Of a stretch of DNA of 49,164 bases, positions 15,272 through 49,056 are shown in pieces. The position numbers and the translations under genes were made by a program. The DNA comes from Parcubacteria group bacterium Greene0416_36 (lineage in GTDB: Bacteria > Patescibacteriota > Patescibacteriia > VMEV01): contig VMEV01000010.1 of NCBI GenBank assembly GCA_007375725.1, forward strand, positions 1 through 49,164. Reading direction: 5' to 3'. A model generated the notes under the pieces. The model made no database searches. It was not told the origin of the DNA and was given only the letters and a program-made list of their open reading frames with translations. Every line of letters begins with the position of its first letter. Position 1 is the stretch's first letter.

Positions 15272-15351
15272 AATTACGAATTACGAATGACGAATTACGA
15301 ATGGATCAGCCAGTTGTTCAATTCGTAATTCGTAATTTCTAATTCGTAATT
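15272..15351. repeat. Inverted heptamer tandem repeats (AATTACG/CGTAATT); related tracts at 29008-29073, 36032-36135, 43235-43268, 43633-43666, 45147-45178 and 46520-46548
   Basis: aattacgaattacgaatgacgaattacgaat ... attcgtaattcgtaatttctaattcgtaatt. Confidence 0.8.
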
Positions 15352-17149: not shown

Positions 17150-17713
17150 TTATTTCTCCTCCTGCTCACGTCCGACGTATTCCCGATTCTCGGTATTGAT
17201 GATCACGACTTCGCCTTCTTTGATGAAGAGCGGCACATTAATGGTGGCTCCGGTTTCGAGCTCGGCCTGCTTCATGACGGCTCCGGCGCTGTCTCCTTTG
17301 ACCCCGGGAGCGGTATTGACCACTTTGAGCGATACTTTCTTGGGAAGAGAAATGGTCACCAAATCATCCCCCAAAAAGAGTCCGTCCACCTTGGCTTCGG
17401 CCACGAGAAACTGGCCGTCTTCGCCTACCGCTTCGGTGCTAACCTGAAACTGCTCAAAATTGTCGTCCATGAAATAATAATTCGTGGCGTCTTTGTAAGT
17501 GAATTGCATGGCACGGCGAGTCACATCCGCCTCCTGTACGACTTCGTCCGATCGGAAGGTAACTTCGAGCGTCTTGCCATTTTTGACATTGCGCATCTTG
17601 ATGCGGCACATCATGCGGCGCTGAGCCATTTTGGAACGGTTCACCTCGGAAACGATCCAAGGATCATTCTCGTACATCATGGCCATTCCTTTGTGAAAAT
17701 CTCCGGCAGTCAT
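17150..17713 (-). CDS. efp: Translation elongation factor P
   Basis: YFMD.NFEQ, TAPGVKGDSA...K.AELETG..I.VPLFI.EG...I.T....Y..R. Confidence 0.95.
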   Translation of the reverse strand: MTAGDFHKGMAMMYENDPWIVSEVNRSKMAQRRMMCRIKMRNVKNGKTLEVTFRSDEVVQEADVTRRAMQFTYKDATNYYFMDDNFEQFQVSTEAVGEDGQFLVAEAKVDGLFLGDDLVTISLPKKVSLKVVNTAPGVKGDSAGAVMKQAELETGATINVPLFIKEGEVVIINTENREYVGREQEEK

Positions 17714-17842
17714 AAATTAGGCTATTAGGCATTAGCTTCTTAGCTTTTTAGAAGACAAAGTAACTAATCCGAAATGGATATAAAAAATAAAAATCTACTT
17801 ATAAACCTATATAATTAAGACCAAATTAGCCTTTTTGGGAGG

Positions 17843-17881
17843 AAAAAGCAAATCCTCGAGAGGAAGTTTCCAATCGAGGAT
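17843..17881 (-). terminator. Terminator closing array 1
   Basis: ATCCTCGA...TCGAGGAT stem followed by TTGCTTTTT on the minus strand. Confidence 0.6.
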
Positions 17882-17888
17882 ATATTTC

Positions 17889-18865
17889 GCCAAATAGATT
17901 TGGCATAAACAAAAATTCGAATTAAAGCGCAAAATATTAGTAAACAAGAAAGAAATTTGTTATAAAACTTCGCGAGAAAATTCTCGCCTCAAAACTAATT
18001 CAACGCATTATAATCTGCAGAAATTCGAAATATAGTGAGGGATAGTACGTCGATACATTAAAGAGTACTGCCTATTCGAGACCTAAAAAAAAGTCTCCAG
18101 TAACTTAAAAGGCTACAATTAAATCTACGCTACTGGACCGTAGTCCGGTAGGGATATCATCATCCGTCCTTTATAAAAGGACCAGAACCATAATCTAATA
18201 AAAAACAAGACGTTCAACATAAATCCGTAGAAAACATGCCGAGCTTCGAAAAGCTCCTAGGCATTAAAACAGGGTGAAACACGGCAAAGGGACCTACAGA
18301 ACACTGATCCAAAATCCCACAACTTTCATGTCTATTATGACCAGACACCTTAAACGAACAATAATGTGCGGCAACACAATCCGAACTACGACACTTAACT
18401 TGGATATCCGAGCAAAAATGCTCCTGAAAAGTAGAGAAATCTGAAACAGTGAACAGGACCCTAGGGGACCAAAATACACTACACATCCGTCCGAAGAATT
18501 CGGACCAATAATAAACCGCAGACTGCAGGAAACAAATATAGGACATCTCGCAGGACATTGATTTCGCCCTTGATAAAAGGGCCAGAAGAACAATTTATCT
18601 TACTTTAAGATAAGATAATTTAATAAATTACAAGGCAAATAAATACATACCGAGCCAATGAAGGCTCCTTGGCACTACAATAAACTAAAGTAAAACAGAC
18701 CATAGTAATCTAAAGGACGCCACTCCATCCGCGAGCAAAGACTCGCCAAAAATCTAAATGACCGCAAGCTAAACCAAGGGAAATAAAACCAATAAGCCCA
18801 AAGGCAAACAATCCGAGAACGAAAAGCTCTCCTATGCAATATTCTTCCTAAACAAACAGAAAGGC
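17889..18865 (-). ncRNA. Putative guide-RNA array 1: 12 hairpins and 11 complete pentamer-periodic tracts
   Basis: Hairpins start at 17889, 17972, 18078, 18166, 18241, 18328, 18410, 18489, 18566, 18652, 18731 and 18815. After each of the first 11, the + strand has a purine every 5 nt for 10-16 steps, starting exactly 5 nt from the stem. No credible ORF. Confidence 0.85.
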
Positions 18866-18890
18866 CTTTTCAAAGAACAGCAACCCAATA

Positions 18891-18919
18891 AATCTAGTCT
18901 AATAGCCAAAGAATGTCAA
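18891..18919 (-). promoter_or_regulatory. sigma70 promoter for array 1
   Basis: Minus strand TTGACA-17 nt-TAGATT, followed by boxA-like TGTTCTTTGAA (18869-18879). Confidence 0.75.
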
Positions 18920-18930
18920 TCCTCCCAACG

Positions 18931-18970
18931 AAAAAACAGCTTATTTTGTTCAATAAGCTGTTTTCTGTTT
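18931..18970 (-). terminator. Intrinsic terminator after the helicase gene
   Basis: aaaacagcttatt-ttgttc-aataagctgtttt. Confidence 0.7.
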
Positions 18971-18996
18971 CTTCTAAAAAACAAAAAGTAATATAG

Positions 18997-21030
18997 TTAT
19001 TTCTTCAAAAACGCACGGGCATCCAGACAACAATCTGCAAAGGTTTTGCCAGATATATAAGAGGTTCTTAGCTTTTCAGGGAGGGCGTAATAGACAAGCC
19101 CCTTAAATCTCTGATCATAACAGATCGTAACGGATTTGATTTTCCCGTCGCGTTCCGTACGGCCGCGGGCTTGCTTGATACGGATCTTGACCAGCCATTG
19201 ATGGATAGCGAAAGCGCCGTTTTTGCCGAACTTGCGATTCTCGAACTTCGACTCGGGAGAATTCGGATCAGGGTATCCAGGACGAAGGGTGATCACTACT
19301 TGAGCCAGACCATCCGGCAAGTCAATCCCTTCGGAAAAATTCTGCTCCGTACCGAGTAAAACCATGCCTTTGCCACCGCGAAACAATTCCACAGCTTCTT
19401 TGGGAGTTTTCGGCATAGTACCCAGCATCGCATCCGATCTCGGACTATTCGAACTGCGACCTCGGGAATAAGTGATGACATCGAGATTTTCTTTGTCCGG
19501 AGAGGAATAGAATAAGAACTTATCCAACTCTTGATGCGATCCAACCAGAACTAAAACACGAATCCCTTCGGCGTTAAAAAGTTTGCATTCCTTAACAATA
19601 CTTTCCAGGCTCTTGGCAGGTTCTCTATCCGAACGCACACTGTAAGCCAGACTCGGAGTGTCGCTCGGCATATAAATACGGGTGTTCTCAGCCGGGAAAC
19701 CGGATTCGAGAAAAAGATACTGAGGAAAATCAATGCCGGAAATATACCCAAAAACAGTACGGTCGCCAATGGTGGCGGACATCGCCAAAGTTCGGGACAA
19801 AAGCACTTTCTTACGAATCAGAGGCCTCACATGATGGGACTGGATGGTAAGGCGATTGATGACTTTTGGCCCCCTTCCTCCGTATTCTTCTTCTGGAATG
19901 GGTTCAGACACAAAATAACTGAATACATAGTTGAGTGCCATGTGCTTGATTTCATCATTTTCTTCCTTGGGAATAGCATAACGAAGGGACTGGATGTACC
20001 TCCAAAGATTGAAAAGAAGATTCTGCACCTCATTGAGAGCTTCGCGCCCTCCTTCCGCTTGGCTCGCCATTTTCTCCAATTCATTTTTTTTGGATTCCAA
20101 AGGAGAAGTGTCAATGGCTTCCAAGGCTTTGATGAGTTTTTTGATTTCATCATCTTCCAAGACGATTTTGGTGAAAGGAGGCTTATTCCTAGATACGATT
20201 TTCTTGAACACAACGAGAAATTTCTTGAGAGAGACGGACACACTTTCGTCCACTTTCTCCACGACCTCAATCGCGCGTTCTAAATGCCAGTCAGTAATAT
20301 CGTAAGAGAGGACATTGCGCACCAGTGGCGTGATATTGTGAACTTCATCCAGGACCACCGCGTCATGATCTTCCCAAACCCCTTTCTCGCTTTTAAAAAG
20401 CCTCATGATCAAATAAAAGGCATACGTGGTCACAACAATTCCCTCGTACTGCTTAGCCGCATATTTATGAGCATAATACGGACAGGGAACCGCCCCTTCT
20501 TCAAGAGTTTTTCCAGTCGCCTGATCCACCCGATGACCGCAGCTTCGCAGTATCGCACAAGGAATTTCATTGGCTTTCCACGCCGGCTTTTGATCCGGAT
20601 AATAAAGACAATCATGAGACTCTCTGCCTTCGAGCACAAATACCATATCCGAAAAACGCTTAGCGATTTGTTTGGCTTGAGCCAAATTGGGCACCACGTA
20701 GAAAATTCGTTTATAGCCATGCAATTTCCGAAGAACTGAAAGCCACACGATACCAATGAGAGACTTGCCGACGCCAGTTTCTCCCTCCAATAAAACTTGA
20801 TCATGGCCTTGGGATAGAAAACGAAAAGCCTTGAGCTGAGCCTCTCTCATTCGGAAATAACGCGGAATATGCCAAGGAAAACACTCCACATAAGGAGCCA
20901 ATGCCGGATTGGCAGCGACTTCCACAGCAAGCATTTCTCTTGTATACCCTTCCTGAGGCGATTCTTGTACGATCGGAATAGGGGAAGGTGTATCTGCAAT
21001 TGAACCCAATAATAATTGATCCGCCATCAT
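18997..21030 (-). CDS. DinG/Rad3-family SF2 helicase with probable FeS-binding cysteines
   Basis: GETGVGKS (motif I), DEVH (II), SAT (III), EGIDLP (V), QARGRTER (VI); GRESHDC...PC....C...PCPYY cysteine cluster. Confidence 0.88.
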   Translation of the reverse strand: MMADQLLLGSIADTPSPIPIVQESPQEGYTREMLAVEVAANPALAPYVECFPWHIPRYFRMREAQLKAFRFLSQGHDQVLLEGETGVGKSLIGIVWLSVLRKLHGYKRIFYVVPNLAQAKQIAKRFSDMVFVLEGRESHDCLYYPDQKPAWKANEIPCAILRSCGHRVDQATGKTLEEGAVPCPYYAHKYAAKQYEGIVVTTYAFYLIMRLFKSEKGVWEDHDAVVLDEVHNITPLVRNVLSYDITDWHLERAIEVVEKVDESVSVSLKKFLVVFKKIVSRNKPPFTKIVLEDDEIKKLIKALEAIDTSPLESKKNELEKMASQAEGGREALNEVQNLLFNLWRYIQSLRYAIPKEENDEIKHMALNYVFSYFVSEPIPEEEYGGRGPKVINRLTIQSHHVRPLIRKKVLLSRTLAMSATIGDRTVFGYISGIDFPQYLFLESGFPAENTRIYMPSDTPSLAYSVRSDREPAKSLESIVKECKLFNAEGIRVLVLVGSHQELDKFLFYSSPDKENLDVITYSRGRSSNSPRSDAMLGTMPKTPKEAVELFRGGKGMVLLGTEQNFSEGIDLPDGLAQVVITLRPGYPDPNSPESKFENRKFGKNGAFAIHQWLVKIRIKQARGRTERDGKIKSVTICYDQRFKGLVYYALPEKLRTSYISGKTFADCCLDARAFLKK

Positions 21031-21123
21031 TTTTTCCTTTCAGGAAAATTAATAAGAAACAAACTAAAACACGAACAGGTTCATTCAATCAGAAAACCCA
21101 TAATTTGTAAAGACTCGTCCAAT

Positions 21124-21153
21124 AAAAAAACACTCTCTTGGCGAGAATGTTTT
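21124..21153 (-). terminator. Possible terminator/attenuator between the RAMP-like gene and the helicase
   Basis: Minus strand aaaacattctc-gccaa-gagagtgtttt, then ttt. Confidence 0.5.
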
Positions 21154-21186
21154 AATTGTCCAATATTTCACTATAAAATCTATCGA

Positions 21187-22053
21187 TTATGTTTTTCCGG
21201 AATTCGCAGGAAGAGAAACTCCTTCCTTCACTTCTTCCTCTTCCATTTTATACGGAAGCGAAATGTATTCATAATCGTCTTCTTTCAAGAGTTCTTTCTT
21301 TACTTCTTGCACACGAACAATCTTGAAGGTACCGTTGGTGCCGTTACAGTTTACACGATAGGACCCGATTCCATAGATCACACCGCCGTTTTTGAGGCAT
21401 TGAAGCGCGATATCGATAGTCTTGGGACCCAAACGATCTTTGACTTCGCAGAGGAATTTGATCTGGGTGCCTTCGGGGTATTCGGGACGCACAATGCGGC
21501 AAGTGATTTCAGCTTTTGGAATAACACCGCGGTCTTCATTGACACGGAATTTTTCCTTTCCGACAATGCACATTTCCTGATCCACAAATTCGGCAGTATA
21601 CCCCAAAATCCTGAAAAAAGAACCGATAATGCTTCCGCTGGTCTTGGTGGAAACTTTCTTGCGATTGCCCAAATCCACATCACATCCCCCGCAACGAGTA
21701 GCCGCATAAATCCACTTGGCAGGCACGCCCGATTTACCAGAATCAGGATCGATCCACACTTTTTTCCTGGCAATTTCTATGCCCGGAAGCCCTTTTACCT
21801 TAACTTTCTTATCAGCAGAATCGATTTCCAATAATTTCTCTGGAGTCATCGGATCGCCCAAAAGTGGAGAGGTCGTTTGGATCGTGATTTCCAAAATGGT
21901 GATATATTTGGTTCCATACGAAACAGGAGAGGAACCTTTCTTTTCCTTTTTCTTCCCCTTTTCAGCGCTCGCCGCACTATCAGCAACGGTTTCAACCACG
22001 GGAATCGGTTCAGTCGCGACAGCAGAGGAACTATCATTTTTTTGTCTAGCCAT
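21187..22053 (-). CDS. Stand-alone RAMP/Cas7-like protein (288 aa)
   Basis: AAGGAG RBS before ATG 22053. LEITIQTTSPLL first strand, G.P...I.AA helix, RPEY...T.I.F and a C-terminal glycine-rich loop GG..YGIGSYR....G..GTF, which is the RAMP/Cas7 layout. Judged by eye, no HMM run. Confidence 0.75.
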   Translation of the reverse strand: MARQKNDSSSAVATEPIPVVETVADSAASAEKGKKKEKKGSSPVSYGTKYITILEITIQTTSPLLGDPMTPEKLLEIDSADKKVKVKGLPGIEIARKKVWIDPDSGKSGVPAKWIYAATRCGGCDVDLGNRKKVSTKTSGSIIGSFFRILGYTAEFVDQEMCIVGKEKFRVNEDRGVIPKAEITCRIVRPEYPEGTQIKFLCEVKDRLGPKTIDIALQCLKNGGVIYGIGSYRVNCNGTNGTFKIVRVQEVKKELLKEDDYEYISLPYKMEEEEVKEGVSLPANSGKT

Positions 22054-22112
22054 GCTAGATCTCCTTAAAAACAAAATACTCAATCTACACAAAACACTAA
22101 AAAATAACAATC

Positions 22113-22353
22113 GAGGTTCAAAGACCCCCTTTACAATACACTACTTAAAAATAAACAGATGAAAAATGAAGGAACATACTCTATTTCGAGGTTAAAACCT
22201 CCAAAACATTAACTTACGAAACAACAAATTAATTAACACCGTTTTAAAGAAATCAATAAAACAGTATATACCGCCCGCATAATGCAGGCCTAAACCTCAC
22301 AGGGATTGACGCAAATCCGCGCAATTATACTCAGAGGTAATCTGCAGGAAAAT
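22113..22353 (-). ncRNA. Putative guide-RNA array 2 (3 units) in the leader of the RAMP-like gene
   Basis: Hairpins 22113-22128, 22188-22201 and 22273-22289; purine every 5 nt on + for 11, 13 and 12 steps from 22133, 22206 and 22294; G.U pairs form only on the minus strand. Confidence 0.82.
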
Positions 22354-22499
22354 TGTCGTTCTAATTGTAAAGAACGTGTTCATCCAAGCATAACCCCAAA
22401 TACTTGTCAAATCTTCCAGGATATGCTTCAATGATGAGTCCAATGTAATTTCAGACCGAGAGACTATAAAACAAATTCCAATCAAAACAGGAGAAACAA

Positions 22500-23489
22500 A
22501 TGAACGATATCGCAACAAGACCAGTACGCGAAAAGAGTCCATGGACCGTGGCCTTTGAAAACAGAAAACATCTCGGAGATTTTTCTACCCCAGCTTGGAA
22601 ACAGGCATATGGTATTATCAATAAAGATTTTTCCAGATTCGAAATACTCGACTGCCCAAATAAAGCGGGACTTACCATTGACTGCGGGCACGCCAGAATC
22701 AAAAACCAAGCAATCGGGATAGAAGGAAACACCTTAATGGTGCACATCTCCGATGTCGCAAGCTTCATTCCCAAAGACAGCCCTCTGGATGTCGAAATGC
22801 AGAGCCGAGTCATATCCATACAAAATTCCAGGATTCTCCCCTTCCGGTTAGCAAAGGAACAGTTCTCGCTGGAACAGAATCAGAAAACCAAATGCCTCAC
22901 GTTCCAATGGGCATTCGATGAATACGGAGAAATCAATCAGTTGCGACGAAAAATATACCATTCCAATGTCGAGGTCCCGATATCGATTTCATTTGAACAA
23001 GCCGATGGCATCCTCGAGGATCCTCTACACAAATACCACCCAGTCATACGAAGCCTCAAATCGATCGGAGAACATCTGGTCGACCTGCGCATCCGCAATG
23101 AGTGGACATTCACGCGCGAACGAAAAAAAACATGGGTGGAAAAAAACGGACAATGGATTTTCACAGACTATATCGACGGGTCTCAATCCCCCAATGACTG
23201 GATCATGCAGGAGGTCATGATTCTAGTGAATTACACCGTGGCATCCCTGTTAGACCAATTGGGTATCCATGGATGCTACACCGATCCCTATCGCTCTCCC
23301 AATGGTATCCGCTATTGCCAAGCCACAGCCCCCATGCATAATTTGGAAGATCTTGTAAATCAAAGGATTCTATTGGCATTATTATCACTCGGGAAAATTC
23401 CTATACCCTATACCCTGGAAGAAATGGAGGAAATCAAAACCAAAACCAATCGCATGTACTTCGCCCGATCTTCGGGAGGGAAAAAATAA
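22500..23489 (+). CDS. RNB (RNase II/R catalytic)-domain protein, predicted inactive
   Basis: TID...LMVHISDVASFIP.DSPLD.E..R..S, FSL, EVMILVN and ATAPM..LEDLVNQRIL match RNB motifs; the catalytic DxDD is replaced by IKNQ. Confidence 0.75.
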   Translation: MNDIATRPVREKSPWTVAFENRKHLGDFSTPAWKQAYGIINKDFSRFEILDCPNKAGLTIDCGHARIKNQAIGIEGNTLMVHISDVASFIPKDSPLDVEMQSRVISIQNSRILPFRLAKEQFSLEQNQKTKCLTFQWAFDEYGEINQLRRKIYHSNVEVPISISFEQADGILEDPLHKYHPVIRSLKSIGEHLVDLRIRNEWTFTRERKKTWVEKNGQWIFTDYIDGSQSPNDWIMQEVMILVNYTVASLLDQLGIHGCYTDPYRSPNGIRYCQATAPMHNLEDLVNQRILLALLSLGKIPIPYTLEEMEEIKTKTNRMYFARSSGGKK

Positions 23490-23500
23490 AAAACAAACAA

Positions 23501-23661
23501 TTCTGTCCTGTCTATTTGCCTAGATCAAAACAAACTAAATTTGAATTTAGGTCCTTTATAATAAAGGACGAAAAAATTTCACATTATTCACGTCAAACAA
23601 ACCTAATTCACGTGGACTTAATTTCATTCCTGTTCGTCTCTGAGCCTCTCTAATCGAGGCT
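23501..23661 (+). ncRNA. Putative guide-RNA array 3 (2 units), opposite orientation, downstream of RNB-like gene 1
   Basis: Pyrimidine every 5 nt at 23501-23546 (10 steps) and 23588-23638 (11 steps); each tract ends 5 nt before a hairpin (23551-23569, 23643-23661) that is followed by GAAA/GGAAAT. Confidence 0.78.
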
Positions 23662-23668
23662 GGAAATC

Positions 23669-23717
23669 AAAAAGTAGCTTCTTCTCAAATTTCAGAAAAA
23701 GCTACTTTTATTTTTTT
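23669..23717. terminator. Bidirectional terminator between convergent arrays 3 and 4
   Basis: AAAAGTAGCTT...AAGCTACTTTTATTTTTTT. Confidence 0.7.
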
Positions 23718-23718
23718 C

Positions 23719-23957
23719 AGCCCCCAGAGAGGGCTCTTGAATATACTATAATTTAGAGTGCCTGAAAGAACAGAACAATAAGGCACGGAAAAGCAAACCG
23801 CGTTTTTAGAAAAACGCCAACACTTAACTCTTGATCGAAATAAAATAATACACAGGAATAAACTATAATAGAACAGCATCCGAGTATGGTGAGTACTCCT
23901 AGAATTGAATGGAATTTACAACAAAGGACAATGATGAGCACCAATCTACAGTAAAAG
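23719..23957 (-). ncRNA. Putative guide-RNA array 4 (3 units)
   Basis: Hairpins 23719-23735, 23800-23817 and 23882-23898; purine every 5 nt from 23740 (12 steps), 23822 (10 of 11) and 23903 (11). Confidence 0.82.
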
Positions 23958-23966
23958 TACCCAATG

Positions 23967-23995
23967 AAACTAGCAATTGGATAGAGGGATGTCAA
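23967..23995 (-). promoter_or_regulatory. sigma70 promoter for array 4
   Basis: Minus strand TTGACA-17 nt-TAGTTT with TG extended -10. Confidence 0.7.
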
Positions 23996-24081
23996 GAGCA
24001 AGCCCTTGTACAATCGATCCGGATATGCTTCAATACTCTCGATTTTCAGTATATTTATCTCTCATTTTAAGGAGTCCAAAA

Positions 24082-25029
24082 ATGGCTAAAAATGGCCAAA
24101 AAAAGAAGATCAACTGGAAAGAGTATTTTGAAAAAAGACAGAATTCGTATCTGTCGGATGCGTCACGCGAAGAATTCGTCAAACATCTGCATTCTGCAGC
24201 ATCCGAAAATAAAAAAATAGAAAGGACAATAATCACCAGCATCACATTCGACAAGGAAATCTATATGAATGAGGCGATACTGATCGAATATCCCTATATT
24301 CATATCAGCGTCCCGGATATAGTCAGTCTCGTTACTCCCAAGAAGACACTGGATAAAGAATTGTACGAGAGAGCCTCTTCCGTTAAAGATAACCCTCTTT
24401 TTCCGGAAGATCTCATCAACCTTCGATCCTCTTTCAAGCATGATGAACTTCGAAATGCTTATACTCTCTCTTGGAAATTTGGCGATGCCGGAGAAATTCA
24501 AGAACCCAAATTTTATCCCAGCCAAATTCTATCAATTGGATATATCCAACCTTCGCCAAGCGCTGAAGCTAAAGACTATCCCAAGAACTTGGAACAAATC
24601 GGACTAAAACTCATTGATCGCAGAATCAAAACGTTTCAGCTCTTCAAGAAAGAGGAAAAATTGCCAGTTGCAGAGAAAGAAGGCTATAAAATTTTCGAAT
24701 GCTACCTCAGAAACTCCACCATGAGCTGGGTTGAAAAAGAACTTGCCATCTTTGCCAATATCCAAGCTGGGGAACTATTTCATCAGAAAGGCATAGCCGC
24801 ATGTTTTGCCTCTCCCTATGGTTCTCCCTGTGAAACCCACTATGCTCCCATCATGCGGCCGCTGGATTCCTATCGAGATCTCATCAATCAGCGAGCACTC
24901 TTGTCAATTTTCACCGGACTCAAAAAGGATTTCCCCTATACTCCCGCGCAGATAGCGAAAATAAATGAAAGGATTCAAACACGGTACAGCGCGTGGAAAA
25001 ATCTAGAAAAGAAAAATTCTAATCTATGA
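24082..25029 (+). CDS. Second RNB-like protein (paralogue), predicted inactive
   Basis: AAGGAG RBS before ATG 24082; IHISVPDI...LD.E..ERASSV, ELAIFAN and HYAPIMRPLDSYRDLINQRAL; catalytic aspartate motif lost. Confidence 0.7.
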   Translation: MAKNGQKKKINWKEYFEKRQNSYLSDASREEFVKHLHSAASENKKIERTIITSITFDKEIYMNEAILIEYPYIHISVPDIVSLVTPKKTLDKELYERASSVKDNPLFPEDLINLRSSFKHDELRNAYTLSWKFGDAGEIQEPKFYPSQILSIGYIQPSPSAEAKDYPKNLEQIGLKLIDRRIKTFQLFKKEEKLPVAEKEGYKIFECYLRNSTMSWVEKELAIFANIQAGELFHQKGIAACFASPYGSPCETHYAPIMRPLDSYRDLINQRALLSIFTGLKKDFPYTPAQIAKINERIQTRYSAWKNLEKKNSNL

Positions 25030-25056
25030 AATTGATCGGTTTCCAAAAAAACCATC

Positions 25057-25100
25057 AAAAAAGTAGCCGATATTTAACCATCAGGCTACTTTTATTTTTT
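25057..25100. terminator. Bidirectional terminator between RNB-like gene 2 and array 5
   Basis: AAAAGTAGCC...GGCTACTTTTATTTTTT, nearly the same as 23669-23717. Confidence 0.7.
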
Positions 25101-25102
25101 CC

Positions 25103-25482
25103 GTGGATTGAATCCACCTGCACACAAATTGATTATGGCTTGAGTCAAGGCAATCCGAAATAATATAGAGAAATCTACGATAATTCAAAAAACAGAACAG
25201 CAATCCGCGCTCTTTTCTAAAAGCGCCTTAAATTTACATTAAATCAATGTAAGTTACACCGGTCGAGACTAAAGAGGTACAATTCGCCTGATAAGTCAGG
25301 CCAGCGATAAAAACCAACTCAAACTACATAAATCTGATATACGTAAATATGACGAAACCATTCGCGTCTGAAAAGACGCCTAGACAAGAAAGCAACGAAA
25401 TCAACACTAAGCCAAATAACAGAACAATAATCCGCGCCCCATTCAATGAGCGCCTACAATAAAAACAAGATTAAATAGAAAA
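25103..25482 (-). ncRNA. Putative guide-RNA array 5 (5 hairpins; 4 complete tracts plus a short leader tract)
   Basis: Hairpins 25103-25117, 25207-25226, 25286-25301, 25364-25379 and 25434-25453; purine every 5 nt from 25122 (17 steps), 25231 (11), 25306 (11), 25384 (10) and 25458 (5). Confidence 0.85.
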
Positions 25483-25505
25483 CACAACAAATTAAGAACT
25501 CATCA

Positions 25506-25534
25506 AACTTATACAATCAATCAATGATTGTCAA
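25506..25534 (-). promoter_or_regulatory. sigma70 promoter for array 5
   Basis: Minus strand TTGACA-17 nt-TAAGTT, then boxA-like GTTCTTAA. Confidence 0.7.
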
Positions 25535-25539
25535 GGGTG

Positions 25540-25571
25540 TGTCGCAAAAACATAATAATGTCTTTGCGACA
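25540..25571. promoter_or_regulatory. Palindromic operator-like site TGTCGCAA-N16-TTGCGACA (second copy at 34375-34406)
   Basis: Identical half-sites and spacing at two loci, each between back-to-back TTGACA boxes. Confidence 0.65.
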
Positions 25572-25577
25572 AAATTC

Positions 25578-25606
25578 TTGACAATTGATTTTAGAAAATT
25601 TATAAT
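25578..25606 (+). promoter_or_regulatory. Consensus sigma70 promoter of the mazEF-like operon
   Basis: TTGACA-17 nt-TATAAT. Confidence 0.85.
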
Positions 25607-25629
25607 ACACACAAATAATGTGTAAAGAT

Positions 25630-25890
25630 ATGTCAACTATCACACTCTCACCCAATACGAAAGAACGCATCAATGTCATGCTTCCACGACGGATCATCCG
25701 TTCGATCGGCCGTCTATCGAAAAATAGAAAACGAAGCCAATTCATCGCAACCGCGGTCGATTTTTATATTGATTCAATGCAAAACAAAAAACTCAAATCT
25801 CTTCTACAAGAAGGAGCGCAAAAAAGATCCGAAAGAGATCAGATAATCACCGAAGAAATGGGCCTCATCGATACGGTTTATGAAAAATAA
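25630..25890 (+). CDS. Ribbon-helix-helix antitoxin (MazE/EndoAI-like)
   Basis: RINVMLP...I......RSQFI..AV pattern; overlaps the start of the toxin gene. Confidence 0.8.
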   Translation: MSTITLSPNTKERINVMLPRRIIRSIGRLSKNRKRSQFIATAVDFYIDSMQNKKLKSLLQEGAQKRSERDQIITEEMGLIDTVYEK

Positions 25891-26248
25891 GACCCTTTTC
25901 CCAAAGCGAGGCGAAATATATCTCGTCAATTTTGATCCTACAGTAGGAGCGGAGATGAAAAAAACACGGCCGGCTCTCATTTTACAAAATGATATTGCAA
26001 ACAAATATAGCGCCATAACCATCATCGCAGCAATCACCTCTCAATTCGAACTGCCTCTCTACCCTACTGAAGTTTTATTGGACTCTTCCGCATGCCGGCT
26101 AGACAAAGAATCAGTCATAGTACTCAATCAAATCCGATCCATCGACAAAACACGCCTGATCAAAAAAATCGGAGAAATTCCAGCGAAGTCATTACAGCAA
26201 ATAGAAATAGCACTAAAAATAAGCCTGGGTCTTATAAAGATAGAATAA
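25880..26248 (+). CDS. mazF: PemK/MazF-family toxin endoribonuclease
   Basis: KRGEIYLVNFDPTVGAE.KKTRPALILQND..N, QIRSIDK.RL. Confidence 0.93.
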   Translation: MKNKTLFPKRGEIYLVNFDPTVGAEMKKTRPALILQNDIANKYSAITIIAAITSQFELPLYPTEVLLDSSACRLDKESVIVLNQIRSIDKTRLIKKIGEIPAKSLQQIEIALKISLGLIKIE

Positions 26249-34439: not shown

Positions 34440-34492
34440 GTTTTGTTCTTTAACAATTTGTCATCCACTCTCCTTTTTAAGGAGTCCTATTT

Positions 34493-34918
34493 ATGGACTG
34501 TGAGCAAATCATGGACACTTTAATGAAAACCCAAGAAACACAAGAACCCTTAAACAATGAAGAAAACAAAAAAATACTCATTCATTGTGCGGAGTGCCAA
34601 GAATGCAATCTTTTTATGGGTTTTTGTAACCTCAGCCCGGACAGAATCAAGAAAAAAGTGAGAAATAAATGTGCCTATTTCTTGGTACATGCATACACTC
34701 CTTTTGCTAAGTTAGAAGACTTACAGGAATTCTACCTACACACAACGCATTGCTCAAAATGCGCTCAAATCTCTTTCGACCATTTCTCCGAAGAAGCCAG
34801 AAACTCCCCTATATCAGAAGAAGAGGAAAAGGCAATCATCAAAAAGCTTGACAAGCTACGAATTCAAGAAAACATAGCTTGGTATATCAAGCTATTCACC
34901 GGAAAAATAAAATTATAA
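34493..34918 (+). CDS. Protein with two HxxxCxxC (zf-HC2/ZAS-like) zinc motifs
   Basis: MDC start, HCAECQEC and HTTHCSKC; AAGGAG RBS. Confidence 0.65.
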   Translation: MDCEQIMDTLMKTQETQEPLNNEENKKILIHCAECQECNLFMGFCNLSPDRIKKKVRNKCAYFLVHAYTPFAKLEDLQEFYLHTTHCSKCAQISFDHFSEEARNSPISEEEEKAIIKKLDKLRIQENIAWYIKLFTGKIKL

Positions 34919-36028: not shown

Positions 36029-36194
36029 AAAAATTAAGAATTTCAGAATTAAGAATGAAGAATTAAACAGCCCTGCTTTATTTGCTGTTTGTTGCTCATT
36101 CTTAATTATTCATTCTTAATTTTTAATTAATTTAACTCTTCCCCACCTTATACACTTCCCCAAGCCATACCTACGGAGTTAATCTGGTACCGAT

Positions 36195-43230: not shown

Positions 43231-43258
43231 AACAGAATTAAGAATGAAAAATGAAGAA

Positions 43259-43624
43259 TTAAGAATTATCACGATCTTCTTTTTTTGAAGTCTTTAAAAT
43301 AGTGACTATAATACTCAAAATTTCATTTATTGCATTTAGAAAATAAACAGATAGTTTTTCATTTAAATAGCCGGAATCTTTCAAAAGCCTGATCCAATAG
43401 AGAGTTTCTCTTGCTTCTTTATAAGCAATTGTCATTTTGGCAACAAAATCTCTTTTTGATTGTGCGCCCTGTGCCTCTTCAACATTTGCGCCAATAGAAG
43501 TCCCACTTCTCAAAACCTGCCGCGATAAAACGAATTCTTTATCTTTCGCCACTAATTGCTGAGCTAGCTTCACAATCTGGATTGCAAAATAATAACTTTT
43601 TTCTTGAATAATATTTTCTTTCAT
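43259..43624 (-). CDS. Four-helix-bundle (23S rRNA IVP-like) protein
   Basis: LSRQVLRSGTSIGANVEEAQGAQS..DF..K..IA.KEARET.YW; flanked by heptamer repeats. Confidence 0.9.
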   Translation of the reverse strand: MKENIIQEKSYYFAIQIVKLAQQLVAKDKEFVLSRQVLRSGTSIGANVEEAQGAQSKRDFVAKMTIAYKEARETLYWIRLLKDSGYLNEKLSVYFLNAINEILSIIVTILKTSKKEDRDNS

Positions 43625-43652
43625 ACTGCTGTTCATTCTTAATTCTTCATTT

Positions 43653-44888
43653 TTAATTCTTAATTTGAAACACCCTCTTCACTTTCCCAATCGCCTTTAT
43701 CAACTCATCCACATCTTTCTCCGTATTATAAATATAAAACGACACGCGCGCCGTGGCCTCGGTCTTCCATACCCCCATCATGGACTGAGAGCAGTGGTGG
43801 CCAGCGCGGATGGCTATTCCGAAAGTATCGCAGATGGTGGCGATGTCATGAGGGTGCACGCCGCGAATGCCAAAAGAAATAATGCCTCCGCGACTGATCA
43901 TGTCCATGGGGCCGTAAATTTCGACGCCTGAAATTTTCTGGATCTCCCCCAAAGCATACTCGGTCAATTGTTTTTCATGTTCAAAAACCGCGCCCATGCC
44001 AATGGCCGACAAATAATCCACGGCAACGCCAAGAGCCACGGCCTCGGCAATCGGCGGGGTGCCGGCTTCGAAGCGCTCGGGAACATCGGCCCAAGTGGAC
44101 TCAGTCAGATGCACTTCTCGGATCATGCCTCCCCCTCCCTGATACGGTTCCATTTGAAGGAGCAGGTCCTTCTTGCCCCATACGACTCCGATTCCCGTGG
44201 GCCCCAGCATTTTGTGGCCGGAAAAAACGAGAAAATCGCATCCGAGACGCGCAACAGAAACCGGCATATGTGGCACACTCTGCGCGCCATCTAAAATTAA
44301 CAAGGCCTTTTTCTCTCGAATCCAAGGTACTATTTTCTCGACCGGATGAATCACTCCGGAAGAATTCGAGGCATGCGCCACAGACACGATTTTAACCGGA
44401 AGGGTCTTTATTTTATTTTGAAAATCCCCCAGATCCCAGCGTCCCTCTACTGTCATTTTCACCGCCTCCACAGTAAAGCCAAAAATCTGCGAGGCCAATT
44501 GCCATGGAACTAAATTAGAGTGATGCTCGCCTCCCGAAACCAAAACCACATCGCCTTTCTTCAGGAATGTTTTCCCCAGTGAAAAAGCCAAAAGATTCAG
44601 GCCCTCGGTCGCATTTTTAGTGAAAATAATTTCTTTGGCATCTTTAGCTCCAATAAACCGAACTACTTTTTCTTTCGCCTCTTCGTATTTCGCAGTCGCC
44701 TGTTCGGACAAAGAGTAAACCCCGCGATGCACATTGGCATTATCTTTCCTATAAAAATTCGAAATCGACTCAATCACCGCCTTCGGCTTCTGCGTGGTGG
44801 ACGCATTATCCAGATAAACCAAAGAATAACCATTGGATTTGGTTTTTAAGATTGGGAAGTTGGATTTTATGTGTTTTGTGTCAAGCAT
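43653..44888 (-). CDS. sufS: Cysteine desulfurase SufS
   Basis: YLDNASTTQKP, EHHSNLVPW, FSGHKMLGPTG and RAGHHC motifs. Confidence 0.95.
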   Translation of the reverse strand: MLDTKHIKSNFPILKTKSNGYSLVYLDNASTTQKPKAVIESISNFYRKDNANVHRGVYSLSEQATAKYEEAKEKVVRFIGAKDAKEIIFTKNATEGLNLLAFSLGKTFLKKGDVVLVSGGEHHSNLVPWQLASQIFGFTVEAVKMTVEGRWDLGDFQNKIKTLPVKIVSVAHASNSSGVIHPVEKIVPWIREKKALLILDGAQSVPHMPVSVARLGCDFLVFSGHKMLGPTGIGVVWGKKDLLLQMEPYQGGGGMIREVHLTESTWADVPERFEAGTPPIAEAVALGVAVDYLSAIGMGAVFEHEKQLTEYALGEIQKISGVEIYGPMDMISRGGIISFGIRGVHPHDIATICDTFGIAIRAGHHCSQSMMGVWKTEATARVSFYIYNTEKDVDELIKAIGKVKRVFQIKN

Positions 44889-44895
44889 AGTAATC

Positions 44896-45127
44896 GTCCG
44901 TCATCCCCGAGAAGCCTCGTCCCGCCATAAGCGGGATACGAGGCTGGATCGGGGATCCAGACCCTTCATATGTAAAAAAAATTATACTTGTCAGACCTTT
45001 TTATCTAGTAGAAAAAACAACCCATTCCTCGCAACAACTATTTTAGTATGACCAAATCCGATGCCTCTAAATAGAGTCGTTGCCTGGATCCCCGATCCGC
45101 CCTACGGGGCTCTCGGGGATGACGGAG
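44896..45127. repeat. REP-like composite inverted element (GTCATCCCCG...GGATCCAG / CTGGATCCCC...CGGGGATGAC)
   Basis: Complementary ends at 44896-44961 and 45083-45127 around an AT-rich core. Confidence 0.6.
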
Positions 45128-46346
45128 AGGGCACATGGATCTGCCGAATTCGTAATTCGTCATTCGTAATTCGTAATTTATTCTGTAGCAGCTCCCTCAC
45201 ATCCTCATTCGGACACGCGTCGATGATCTCGCCCAGGAATCCGCCGATCAGCACCGAACGAGCCTCGTCTCTCTCAAGTCCGCGACTCTGGAGATAGAAT
45301 AACCGGTCGGCGTCAAGCTGGGTAGTCGAAGACCCATGCTTGGCTCCCACGTCATTGGTATGCACGCGAAGAATCGGCAGGGATCGCTTCTTGGCAGAAG
45401 CCGACAATTGTAATCCTGATTCCACCAGATGCGCATTGGAAAGTTTCGCGTCTTTGGAAAGTTCCAAATCCCCCACAAAATCGATGAAAGCTGATCCGTC
45501 GAGAGTGCCTTTGACCACAATATCAGAAGTGGACCTCTCGGCCATGTGATGAGCATTGGCAATAATGGAAATTTCATCCGTACCTCCCGCGCGATACAAA
45601 CCGCGGTAAGAATACTCCGCCTTCTCCCCCGCCAAATACGCCTGATTGAAGATGCGCGCGGCCGGACAATTGAAAGAGGCGCCCCAGACTCGGCAGGAAG
45701 CATTGGCCTCCAAGAAAATCTCGCGCGTGAAAAAAGACTTGGCCTGGCACTCATTATAAAAATTAGAAATCTCGAGTGCCACTCCCTCGCCCACAAAGAC
45801 ACGGTCCAGGCCAAAAGACATCGGCAACTCTTTCGGCTCGGCTCCGGAAGACACGGTGATTTGGGCGGCCACACCCGATTCGACCACCCAGGCCACGACA
45901 AATCCCAGAGGCGCGCTTTGATGGTAATGCATAAAAAAATGGCGCGTCTCGTGCTCGGCGGAAACCAATACCAAACCGCCCGAAGAAAAGACGGCCAAGT
46001 TGGCTAGGACCATGATATCCGAGTCTTGCGAAATATTATGAAAGATATAATTCGAAAAAAATTCCAGATTCTTCTCCAGTTCCGTGTACTCCAAAAAATT
46101 CATGTCGATGTTTCCAGCCGCGGAATCAATGCTCACAACCTCGCCAGCGCTGATCTCCAGAGGCTCGCTCAATTTTTCTTCTTTTCCCAACAACATTTCC
46201 AAAGCGGCCAACTGTTCCTTGGTGAATTTTTTCTCTTTCAAAAGTGAGAACGCAAAATCACGGCCTTCTTTGATAAAGCGAGGCTCGCGGCGTGTTTGAT
46301 TGAGATTATCTTTAATAATTTTGATTTGAGAAATGATGTGTTGCAT
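45102..46346 (-). CDS. sufD: Fe-S assembly protein SufD
   Basis: P.L.V...DV.AKHGSS...D...LFYLQSRGL....A...LI.GF; between sufB and sufS. Confidence 0.88.
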   Translation of the reverse strand: MQHIISQIKIIKDNLNQTRREPRFIKEGRDFAFSLLKEKKFTKEQLAALEMLLGKEEKLSEPLEISAGEVVSIDSAAGNIDMNFLEYTELEKNLEFFSNYIFHNISQDSDIMVLANLAVFSSGGLVLVSAEHETRHFFMHYHQSAPLGFVVAWVVESGVAAQITVSSGAEPKELPMSFGLDRVFVGEGVALEISNFYNECQAKSFFTREIFLEANASCRVWGASFNCPAARIFNQAYLAGEKAEYSYRGLYRAGGTDEISIIANAHHMAERSTSDIVVKGTLDGSAFIDFVGDLELSKDAKLSNAHLVESGLQLSASAKKRSLPILRVHTNDVGAKHGSSTTQLDADRLFYLQSRGLERDEARSVLIGGFLGEIIDACPNEDVRELLQNKLRITNDELRIRQIHVPSPSSPRAP

Positions 46347-46504: not shown

Positions 46505-46559
46505 TAACTCCGCAGGCTGTTCATTCTTAATTCTTAATTTTTAATTTTGCATTTGTTGC

Positions 46560-49013: not shown

Positions 49014-49056
49014 TTGCCAATCTTGCCAATCTTGTCAACCCTGTCAACCTTGTCAA
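49014..49056 (+). repeat. 9-nt tandem repeat (about 5 copies of YYTGYCAAY)
   Basis: ttgccaatc ttgccaatc ttgtcaacc ctgtcaacc ttgtcaa. Confidence 0.7.

Follow-up and report, generated by a model that had tools for sequence, protein, structure and literature searches.

VIPR systems were first described in 2026 as consisting of a small RAMP protein (Vipr), one accessory gene (vap) and guide RNAs designated as vrRNAs (10.64898/2026.04.26.720920 = PMC13142463). Each vrRNA is described as having 9-16 YNNGG pentamers in a row and, after them, a structured 3' tail, and in SUSP1, the type II exemplar from an Escherichia phage, one vrRNA lies upstream of the genes and three lie downstream (10.64898/2026.04.26.720920). 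According to the same report, the NN letters are matched to double-stranded DNA, 1 nt of which is skipped between one pair and the next, and seven types are distinguished, of which types III-V occur with "DNA nucleases or helicases". It also gives NNNGG, YNNNG and NNNNG as other pentamer units and allows "a related consensus" (10.64898/2026.04.26.720920). One Vipr protomer is reported to bind each pentamer, the GGY letters being held by D177, W178 and R179 of the G-loop (10.64898/2026.04.26.720927). Non-canonical units including WGT/NN and TGH/NN have been listed (10.64898/2026.10.21.760802), and VIPR is also the subject of 10.64898/2026.10.15.759431.

The locus described here lies in a window of 49,164 nt, which is the whole stretch of DNA that was analysed. 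Unlike the phage-borne SUSP1 system, it is located between efp and mutS on the chromosome of its host, an ultra-small groundwater bacterium, and the genes around it are of the housekeeping kind (rpoB/rpoC, efp, mutS, dnaG, rpoD and suf). The genome comprises 1.03 Mb in 25 contigs and is rated 100% complete, and its DNA is present in groundwater metagenome runs.

Array 2 and the other guide arrays

The initial annotation of this DNA recognized three guide-like units upstream of a RAMP gene on the minus strand, and the hairpins, the 5-nt phase and the clustering of the units confirm this. Read on the minus strand, positions 22349-22113 (Array 2) contain three units, in each of which a tract of 11-14 pentamers leads up to a short hairpin (Table 1). 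The tracts are T/G-rich, and their 5-nt register is shared with the start of the hairpin. Cutting Array 2 in fives from the hairpin start gave 12, 14 and 11 pentamers (37 in all); the first letter is C or T in 36 of them (binomial p = 4.5e-8 against the local composition) and T in 29 (p = 5.8e-5). Counts of 11, 13 and 12 pentamers had been annotated. The common architecture stands, while the counts obtained here are 12, 13-14 and 11 plus 4 nt, a difference that reflects where the ends are drawn. The tail of A2.3 is a 5-bp hairpin that folds at -5.5 kcal/mol, and a U run begins 9 nt further on. The end of this hairpin (22113) is separated from the ATG of vipr at 22053 by 59 nt, in agreement with the approximately 60 nt originally estimated. 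The term "guide-like" is also appropriate, since a tract with a structured 3' tail and arrays on both sides of the gene correspond to the published VIPR layout.

Table 1 Positions of the features in the window.
Feature	Position (strand)	Description	Remark
Array 1	17888..18919 (-)	promoter TTGACA-17-TAGATT 18919-18891, then 12 units; first and last poorly phased	3' of helicase
Terminator after helicase	18931..18966 (-)	-18.8 kcal/mol	
DinG/XPD-type helicase, likely accessory (vap) gene	18997..21030 (-)	677 aa	
Terminator-like hairpin and U run after vipr	21127..21153 (-)	-14.5 kcal/mol	
vipr	21187..22053 (-)	288-aa Cas7-like RAMP protein	core residues 51-251, disordered Lys-rich N-terminus, acidic C-terminal tail
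Spacer between Array 2 and vipr	22054..22112 (-)	59 nt, U-rich	AAGGAG 8 nt before ATG; weak promoter-like TTGTTA-17-TAGATT 22110-22082; assigned by reading
vrRNA unit A2.3	22113..22187 (-)	GAAA, 11 pentamers 22183-22129, tail hairpin 22128-22113	Y first in 11/11
vrRNA unit A2.2	22188..22272 (-)	13-14 pentamers 22272-22202, tail hairpin 22201-22188	Y first in 13/14
vrRNA unit A2.1	22273..22349 (-)	~12 pentamers 22349-22290 (count approximate at the 5' end), tail hairpin 22289-22273	Y first in 12/12
6-bp hairpin holding boxA-like GTTCTTTAC	22357..22376 (-)	GTTCTTTAC at 22375-22367	between promoter and first pentamers
Candidate Array 2 promoter	22382..22410 (-)	TTGACA 22410-22405, 17 nt, TTGGAT 22387-22382	
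Array 4	23669..23995 (-)	TTGACA at 23995; 3 units, tails 23898-23882, 23817-23800, 23735-23719; terminator -20.1 kcal/mol	between two plus-strand genes
Array 3	25057..25534 (-)	TTGACA at 25534; 5 units, tails at 25453, 25379, 25301, 25226, 25117; terminator -15.8 kcal/mol	

Array 2 belongs to a set of approximately 23 guide units in four arrays, all of which are on the vipr strand. When the columns of the 23 units were anchored on the hairpins (~300 letters per column), position 1 was T at a frequency of 0.74 (Y 0.89), positions 2 and 3 were near uniform, position 4 was A/T at 0.78 (G 0.11), and position 5 was G/T at 0.84 (G 0.35, T 0.49). The pentamer form across the locus is Y-NN-W-K, with two free and three constrained letters, and all 16 dinucleotides are present at the NN positions. 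The tracts comprise 10-18 pentamers per unit, and three units (A3.1, A1.1, and A1.12) are poorly phased. On these column frequencies, the unit read as W-K-Y/NN is a looser form of WGT/NN. It reads W-[G/T]-T/NN, close to the WGT/NN listed in 10.64898/2026.10.21.760802, except that G at the middle constant letter is in the minority here (0.35 versus 0.49 for T). The constant letters are G-G-Y in SUSP1 and W-K-Y here, and as W-K-Y is far weaker as a constant motif, binding may follow a different rule. The locus was identical in 4 DNA runs of one groundwater metagenome study, possibly the source of this DNA, and this identity is therefore uninformative on the variability of the NN letters.

The tails are hairpins of 14-17 nt, and the 23 tails have 23 distinct sequences; at positions 2, 4, and 5 of the stem, 4-6 types of pair occur. 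Their shape and flanks (G before, G-R-A after) are kept although the sequence varies in every unit. In contrast, the tails of SUSP1 are invariable and pseudoknotted. A strict hairpin-plus-flank filter gave 178 matches on both strands of the genome. Clusters of matches (at least three within 200 nt) were confined, in the 1.03-Mb genome, to this contig and to its minus strand (17987-18182, 18423-18831, 22128-22289 and 25117-25453). The hairpins and their G and G-R flanks were selected by the filter, and the formation of all outer pairs (115/115) is thus a matter of construction. This reservation does not extend to how the units cluster, to their 73-110-nt spacing, to the phase of the pentamers, or to the A or T at -2 (23 of the 23 tails) and the A at +3 (18 of the 23).

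A codon-like contiguous reading of positions 2-4 showed no depletion of stops (12 versus 10.8 expected in the sense direction and 17 versus 15.9 in the antisense direction); A3.1, A1.1, A1.12 and the pentamers lacking Y at position 1 were omitted from this count. Tandem Repeats Finder reported nothing at the arrays. The window contains no known RNA family at the gathering score and no tRNA, and a search at E <= 1 over 17700-25700 returned two chance-level rows only and no ribozyme. Repeats of other kinds are present elsewhere in the window. Runs of a 7-nt repeat (AATT plus three letters) are located at 15272-15351, 36032-36128, 43234-43268, 43635-43665, 45147-45178 and 46523-46546, and the first two are each followed by their reverse complement. 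They resemble the period-7 "beads-on-a-string" arrays of Patescibacteriota, described as cluster 156,623 (10.64898/2026.10.21.760802). A 9-nt tandem repeat, TTGTCAACC x 4.8, is located at the end of the window (49014-49056) and contains three minus-strand TTGACA hexamers.

The vipr protein, its helicase neighbour and related loci

The vipr protein has no family of its own in Pfam, PHROG, PADLOC or NCBIfam, and a word-index protein search with it returned only the protein itself. With phmmer against 1.84 billion representatives, 79 proteins were obtained at E <= 0.001, the best non-self match being at 4.8e-12 with 32% identity. Four of the 79 were giant proteins with HYR or cadherin repeats and were removed, and the remaining 75 were aligned. 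All eight small relatives tested are contained in phrog_4652, a family of unknown function. The 75-row family profile matched 36pp_D, "SUSP1 Vipr protein", in the PDB with an E value of 3.6e-16 over 189 profile positions, while the vipr protein alone did not match the SUSP1 Vipr structure in the PDB (best E 0.81). An AF2 model was obtained with a pLDDT of 82; Foldseek matched it best to the Csm3/Cas7 subunits that occur in complexes of types III-A and VII (E 1.5e-7 at a probability of 1.00). On these comparisons, the vipr product is a homologue of the solved SUSP1 Vipr through its protein family, and its predicted structure is a Cas7/RAMP fold. The "RAMP" label given earlier to the gene downstream of Array 2 is right, as indicated by both the fold and the family matches. 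Like the Cas7 proteins of types III and VII (Csm3), which are its best structural matches, the protein would place one protomer per fixed guide-RNA step and has a G-rich loop; it differs from them in a step of 5 nt instead of 6, in being a stand-alone protein and in a sequence identity of just 9-15%.

A Vipr homologue was found in 13 of 401 sampled genomes of the same taxonomic class by an alignment-based profile search, and 12 related loci were fetched for comparison of their neighbours. In a tree built by a quick method (weak support, a more careful search being unfinished), the protein falls inside a large helicase-linked group on a branch of 2.83 and has no well-supported sister; the tree is taken here only to indicate that the protein is divergent. 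Its G-loop, GIGSYR..G..G.F, aligns to the G[LIV]G.[FYW]RP..G.FG.F of the family. The position of SUSP1 D177 (GVGDWRP) is occupied by Ser231 in this locus. Among the related loci, canonical YNNGG units go together with a G-loop of ..G-D-Y-R-P in L025, L028 and L029, whereas L020, L021, L024 and L027 have GY-NNN units with Ala, Ala, Gly or Ser at the D177 place, and L023 has T-anchored units with Pro. Asp occurs with GG units in 4/4 loci (SUSP1 included) and a non-Asp residue with non-GG units in 6/6, in what is a tiny sample of kin. Across the family of 75, this place is held by Asp in 29, Ser in 25 and Ala in 13, many of the Asp members being without readable DNA. A link between the G-loop residue and the GG anchor is accordingly offered as a lead suggested by these sequences and not as a result.

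Two of these relatives have leaders of their own kind before vipr. That of L021 (G052), ~90 nt before vipr, contains 6-7 pentamers of the GY-NNN kind, and its guide tail is shortened and lacks a U run; in L020 (G075), ~125 nt before vipr, the leader ends in a tail-like hairpin and a U run just before the RBS. Guide-like vipr leaders may thus recur in this branch, as far as the sequences of these loci indicate.

The gene beside vipr encodes a helicase whose best match in the defence libraries is PADLOC typeIV_DinG (type IV-A DinG), at 6.2e-40 over the full length. The TIGR03117 cas_csf4 equivalog scores 21 bits on it against a cut-off of 400. Seven of the 12 related loci carry a homologue of the helicase (30-37% identity) in the vicinity of vipr, which indicates that the vipr-helicase pair is conserved. 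The helicase-linked relatives of the same class use mostly GY-NNN units, unlike this locus. The word DinG does not occur in the searchable text of 10.64898/2026.04.26.720920.

Other genes lie near the arrays. Two short paralogues with an RNB domain (RNase II/R-like) lie between the guide arrays at 22500-23489 (+) and 23977-25029 (+) and are 30% identical, and a third short copy is located on another contig (G000:C19 ~44383-45102). None of the three copies has cold-shock or S1 domains. The two paralogues read I-K-N-Q and Y-M-N-E at the place where RNase II has its Asp cluster. RNB-like genes were rejected as parts of the system, as none of the 12 related Vipr loci carries one. A gene for a MazF/PemK-type toxin (Pfam 1.6e-31) follows a 90-aa ORF at 25618-26248 (+), back to back with Array 3, and this gene pair has a perfect TTGACA-17-TATAAT promoter at 25578-25606.

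Identity of the system

In our view Array 2 is likely, with good confidence, to consist of three vrRNA genes belonging to a VIPR system on the chromosome. What is established is the anatomy of the sequence together with the fold and the homology of the protein. The small RAMP, a protein characterized in VIPR by an RRM core, a G-rich loop and a thumb, is homologous to Vipr by its family profile and fold, and the tracts consist of pentamers with constant and hypervariable positions, with 10-18 per unit compared with ~9-16 in the definition. A hairpin follows every tract, the hairpins having been chosen by the filter. Guides flank the genes, with Array 2 upstream and Array 1 downstream of vipr and the helicase, which stands beside vipr as vap. 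The canonical GGY letters are missing, the frequency of G being 0.11 (position 4) and 0.35 (position 5). Because the published descriptions allow a related consensus and other units, this lowers the assignment to a canonical type and not the assignment to VIPR. The locus thus has every structural feature of VIPR save the canonical GGY. It resembles SUSP1 in its Vipr-homologous small RAMP, its pentamer tract with a 3' tail, the guides on both sides, the single accessory gene and the absence of self-targets above shuffled controls. It differs in the number of guides (~23 in four arrays) and in the accessory gene, which encodes a DNA-binding protein in SUSP1 and a helicase here. The helicase partner and the location on a host chromosome are shared with VIPR types III-V.

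The combination of a Cas7 fold and a DinG-type helicase also calls for comparison with CRISPR. Type IV-A CRISPR-Cas probably binds its target, on which the helicase then works, rather than cutting it. Like that system (Csf2/Cas7 with CasDinG/Csf4), the present locus pairs an RNA-binding protein of predicted Cas7 fold with a helicase of the DinG family. If the arrays were a degenerate CRISPR array of a type IV-like system, the fold of the vipr protein and the type IV-A DinG match of the helicase would be accounted for, and a Cas1 fragment on another contig could be cited in addition. This reading is nevertheless very improbable. It is contradicted by the absence of direct repeats, since the 23 tails all differ and Tandem Repeats Finder sees no array. 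The "spacers" carry a 5-nt code, and the helicase is far under the csf4 cut-off. No Cas5, Cas6, Cas8 or other Cas family was found among the scanned ORFs of the locus, which is also without adaptation genes. An origin by chance, from intergenic DNA that is rich in T and dotted with small hairpins or terminators, has a still smaller probability, close to negligible: the terminator scan does flag many of the hairpins, but the clusters occur at this locus only in 1.03 Mb, the phase statistics are strong, and the four arrays agree in strand and in spacing and adjoin a Vipr homologue.

The Cas1 fragment is C-terminal (31.7 bits, over the cut-off) and is accompanied by a repeat with a 73-nt period in 2.6 copies, the two being at G000:C10:92-289 and 783-966 (locus L032). 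Together they may represent what is left of a CRISPR locus, or the edge of one, within the same genome bin.

For the chromosomal VIPR system, we infer transcription, processing, protein binding and DNA targeting. One Vipr protomer would bind each pentamer, as suggested by the homology with SUSP1. As in SUSP1, the filament would hide the constrained letters and display the NN pairs, which would read double-stranded DNA in an NN-skip-NN register, and the neighbouring DinG-like helicase would then act on the bound target.

Targets were searched for with this register and with variants of it. In the own genome, eight reading rules were applied (positions 2-3, 2-4 or 2-5; skips 0-2) and none beat the shuffled controls; 1-7 of the 23 units exceeded 4 controls, compared with ~4.6 expected by chance. 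This lack of self-targets agrees with the description in 10.64898/2026.04.26.720920. The exact NN-skip patterns of A2.1, A2.2 and A2.3, as well as those of A1.3, A1.2 and A1.6, gave 0 matches in viral contigs, and those of A2.2 and A2.1 gave 0 matches in metagenome contigs. The A2.2 pattern with <=3 mismatches gave 0 matches in the 401 genomes of the class. These results in viral contigs, metagenome contigs and class genomes are uninformative, because exact matching is harsh and the phages of such bacteria are poorly sampled.

Transcription of Array 2 and vipr

The TTGACA that the initial annotation had seen upstream of Array 2 is present at 22410-22405 on the minus strand, and its judgement that the -10 is poor was right: TTGGAT breaks the -10 rule of the promoter scan, and the candidate promoter was consequently unlisted by the scan. 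The downstream 9-mer GTTCTTTAC had been regarded as boxA-like. Such a role is unsupported, as no such motif is located within 420 nt upstream of the 16S rRNA of this genome and the 9-mer occurs five times in the genome. The sole other genome match to a relaxed boxA-like pattern is GTTCTTTAACAA at 34445-34460 (+), which precedes an ORF of unknown family at 34493-34918. Feedback by the protein on its own leader had also been proposed and remains speculative and unsupported. The RBS-hiding fold behind the last Array 2 tail is no better than that of shuffled sequences (z +0.43; 129/200 shuffles fold at least equally well). The entire 314-nt leader has a folding z of -2.8, from which we read nothing beyond its three hairpins.

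We lean towards transcription from Array 2 running on into vipr, and the arrangement of signals makes such co-transcription plausible. The units would most likely be transcribed from the promoter at 22410-22382, and the guides and the protein would come from one primary transcript, which would then be cut near the tails. The minus strand of 17700-25700 contains seven perfect TTGACA hexamers, four of which stand at array heads, one per array. The nearest one upstream of vipr on the same strand is that at 22410, which is 352 nt away. A TTGACA is located ~90-140 nt before vipr in all five relatives examined, and the greater distance here is due to the length added by the three units. Hairpins with U runs, folding at -14.5 to -20.1 kcal/mol, close off Arrays 3 and 4 as well as vipr and the helicase; Array 2 alone is without a strong terminator.

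We hold a different organization to be somewhat less likely, namely one in which Array 2, still made up of vrRNAs, forms its own small-RNA transcription unit that ends at or near its last tail, and vipr is expressed from its own weak promoter just before the ATG. The promoter-like TTGTTA(22110-22105)-17-TAGATT(22087-22082) between the last tail and the ATG has the same -10 hexamer as the Array 1 promoter; it matches just 8/12 letters, however, in very T-rich DNA, and the interval from Array 2 to vipr lacks a perfect TTGACA, unlike the situation in the five relatives. Two relatives do have the separate organization, the upstream guide of L025 and L023 ending in its own terminator and vipr having its own promoter. 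In the present locus, the U-rich stretch after the last tail was flagged as terminator-like by the scan, but so were seven other tails that are internal or first in arrays, and the call is therefore non-discriminating. The weak fold of this last tail and the distance to its U run also contrast with the terminators of the locus. It is decidedly improbable that the Array 2 units are instead worn or non-guiding cis copies, serving as a Vipr-binding leader that sets the translation or stability of the vipr mRNA or as a decoy. Their position in front of vipr, the short tract and cut-down tail without a U run in the vipr leader of L021, and the failure to find targets would all suit such a function. 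On the other hand, Array 2 is phased as well as the other arrays (36/37 Y) and has full-length tracts with diverse NN letters, no RBS-hiding structure stands out (z +0.43), and missing targets carry little information for an organism whose phages are barely sampled.

Going beyond transcription that runs on from Array 2 into vipr, it can be proposed that in the helicase-linked VIPR branch the guides are carried in the 5' leader of the vipr mRNA, that coating of the nascent leader by Vipr or cutting at the tails sets the level of full-length vipr mRNA, and that the guides are recognized mainly by one pyrimidine per step and the hairpin. We put this forward tentatively, as a rather unlikely scheme. 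Such recognition would follow from the T-anchored, weakly constrained W-K-Y unit and the tails kept in shape only, and a G-loop with Ser where SUSP1 uses Asp to read the first G would be consistent with it. If true, one promoter would make three guides and then their coat protein, with a self-limiting ratio of guide to protein that is undescribed for VIPR.

The RNA-guided system of this locus is real, but its kind has already been named as VIPR. Novelty may lie in degree, namely in the weak W-K-Y anchor, the tails conserved in shape only, the four arrays with ~23 guides and the DinG-type partner. The placement of guides in the vipr leader is probably a further feature. VIPR was discovered only months ago, its characterisation has so far covered phage type II systems alone, and the present locus provides a compact example on a host chromosome. 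It could help to establish to what extent the GGY anchor is really required and what a helicase adds to binding-only silencing, in parallel with type IV-A CRISPR. It could also be used to test the delivery of guides from the mRNA leader of their own protein.
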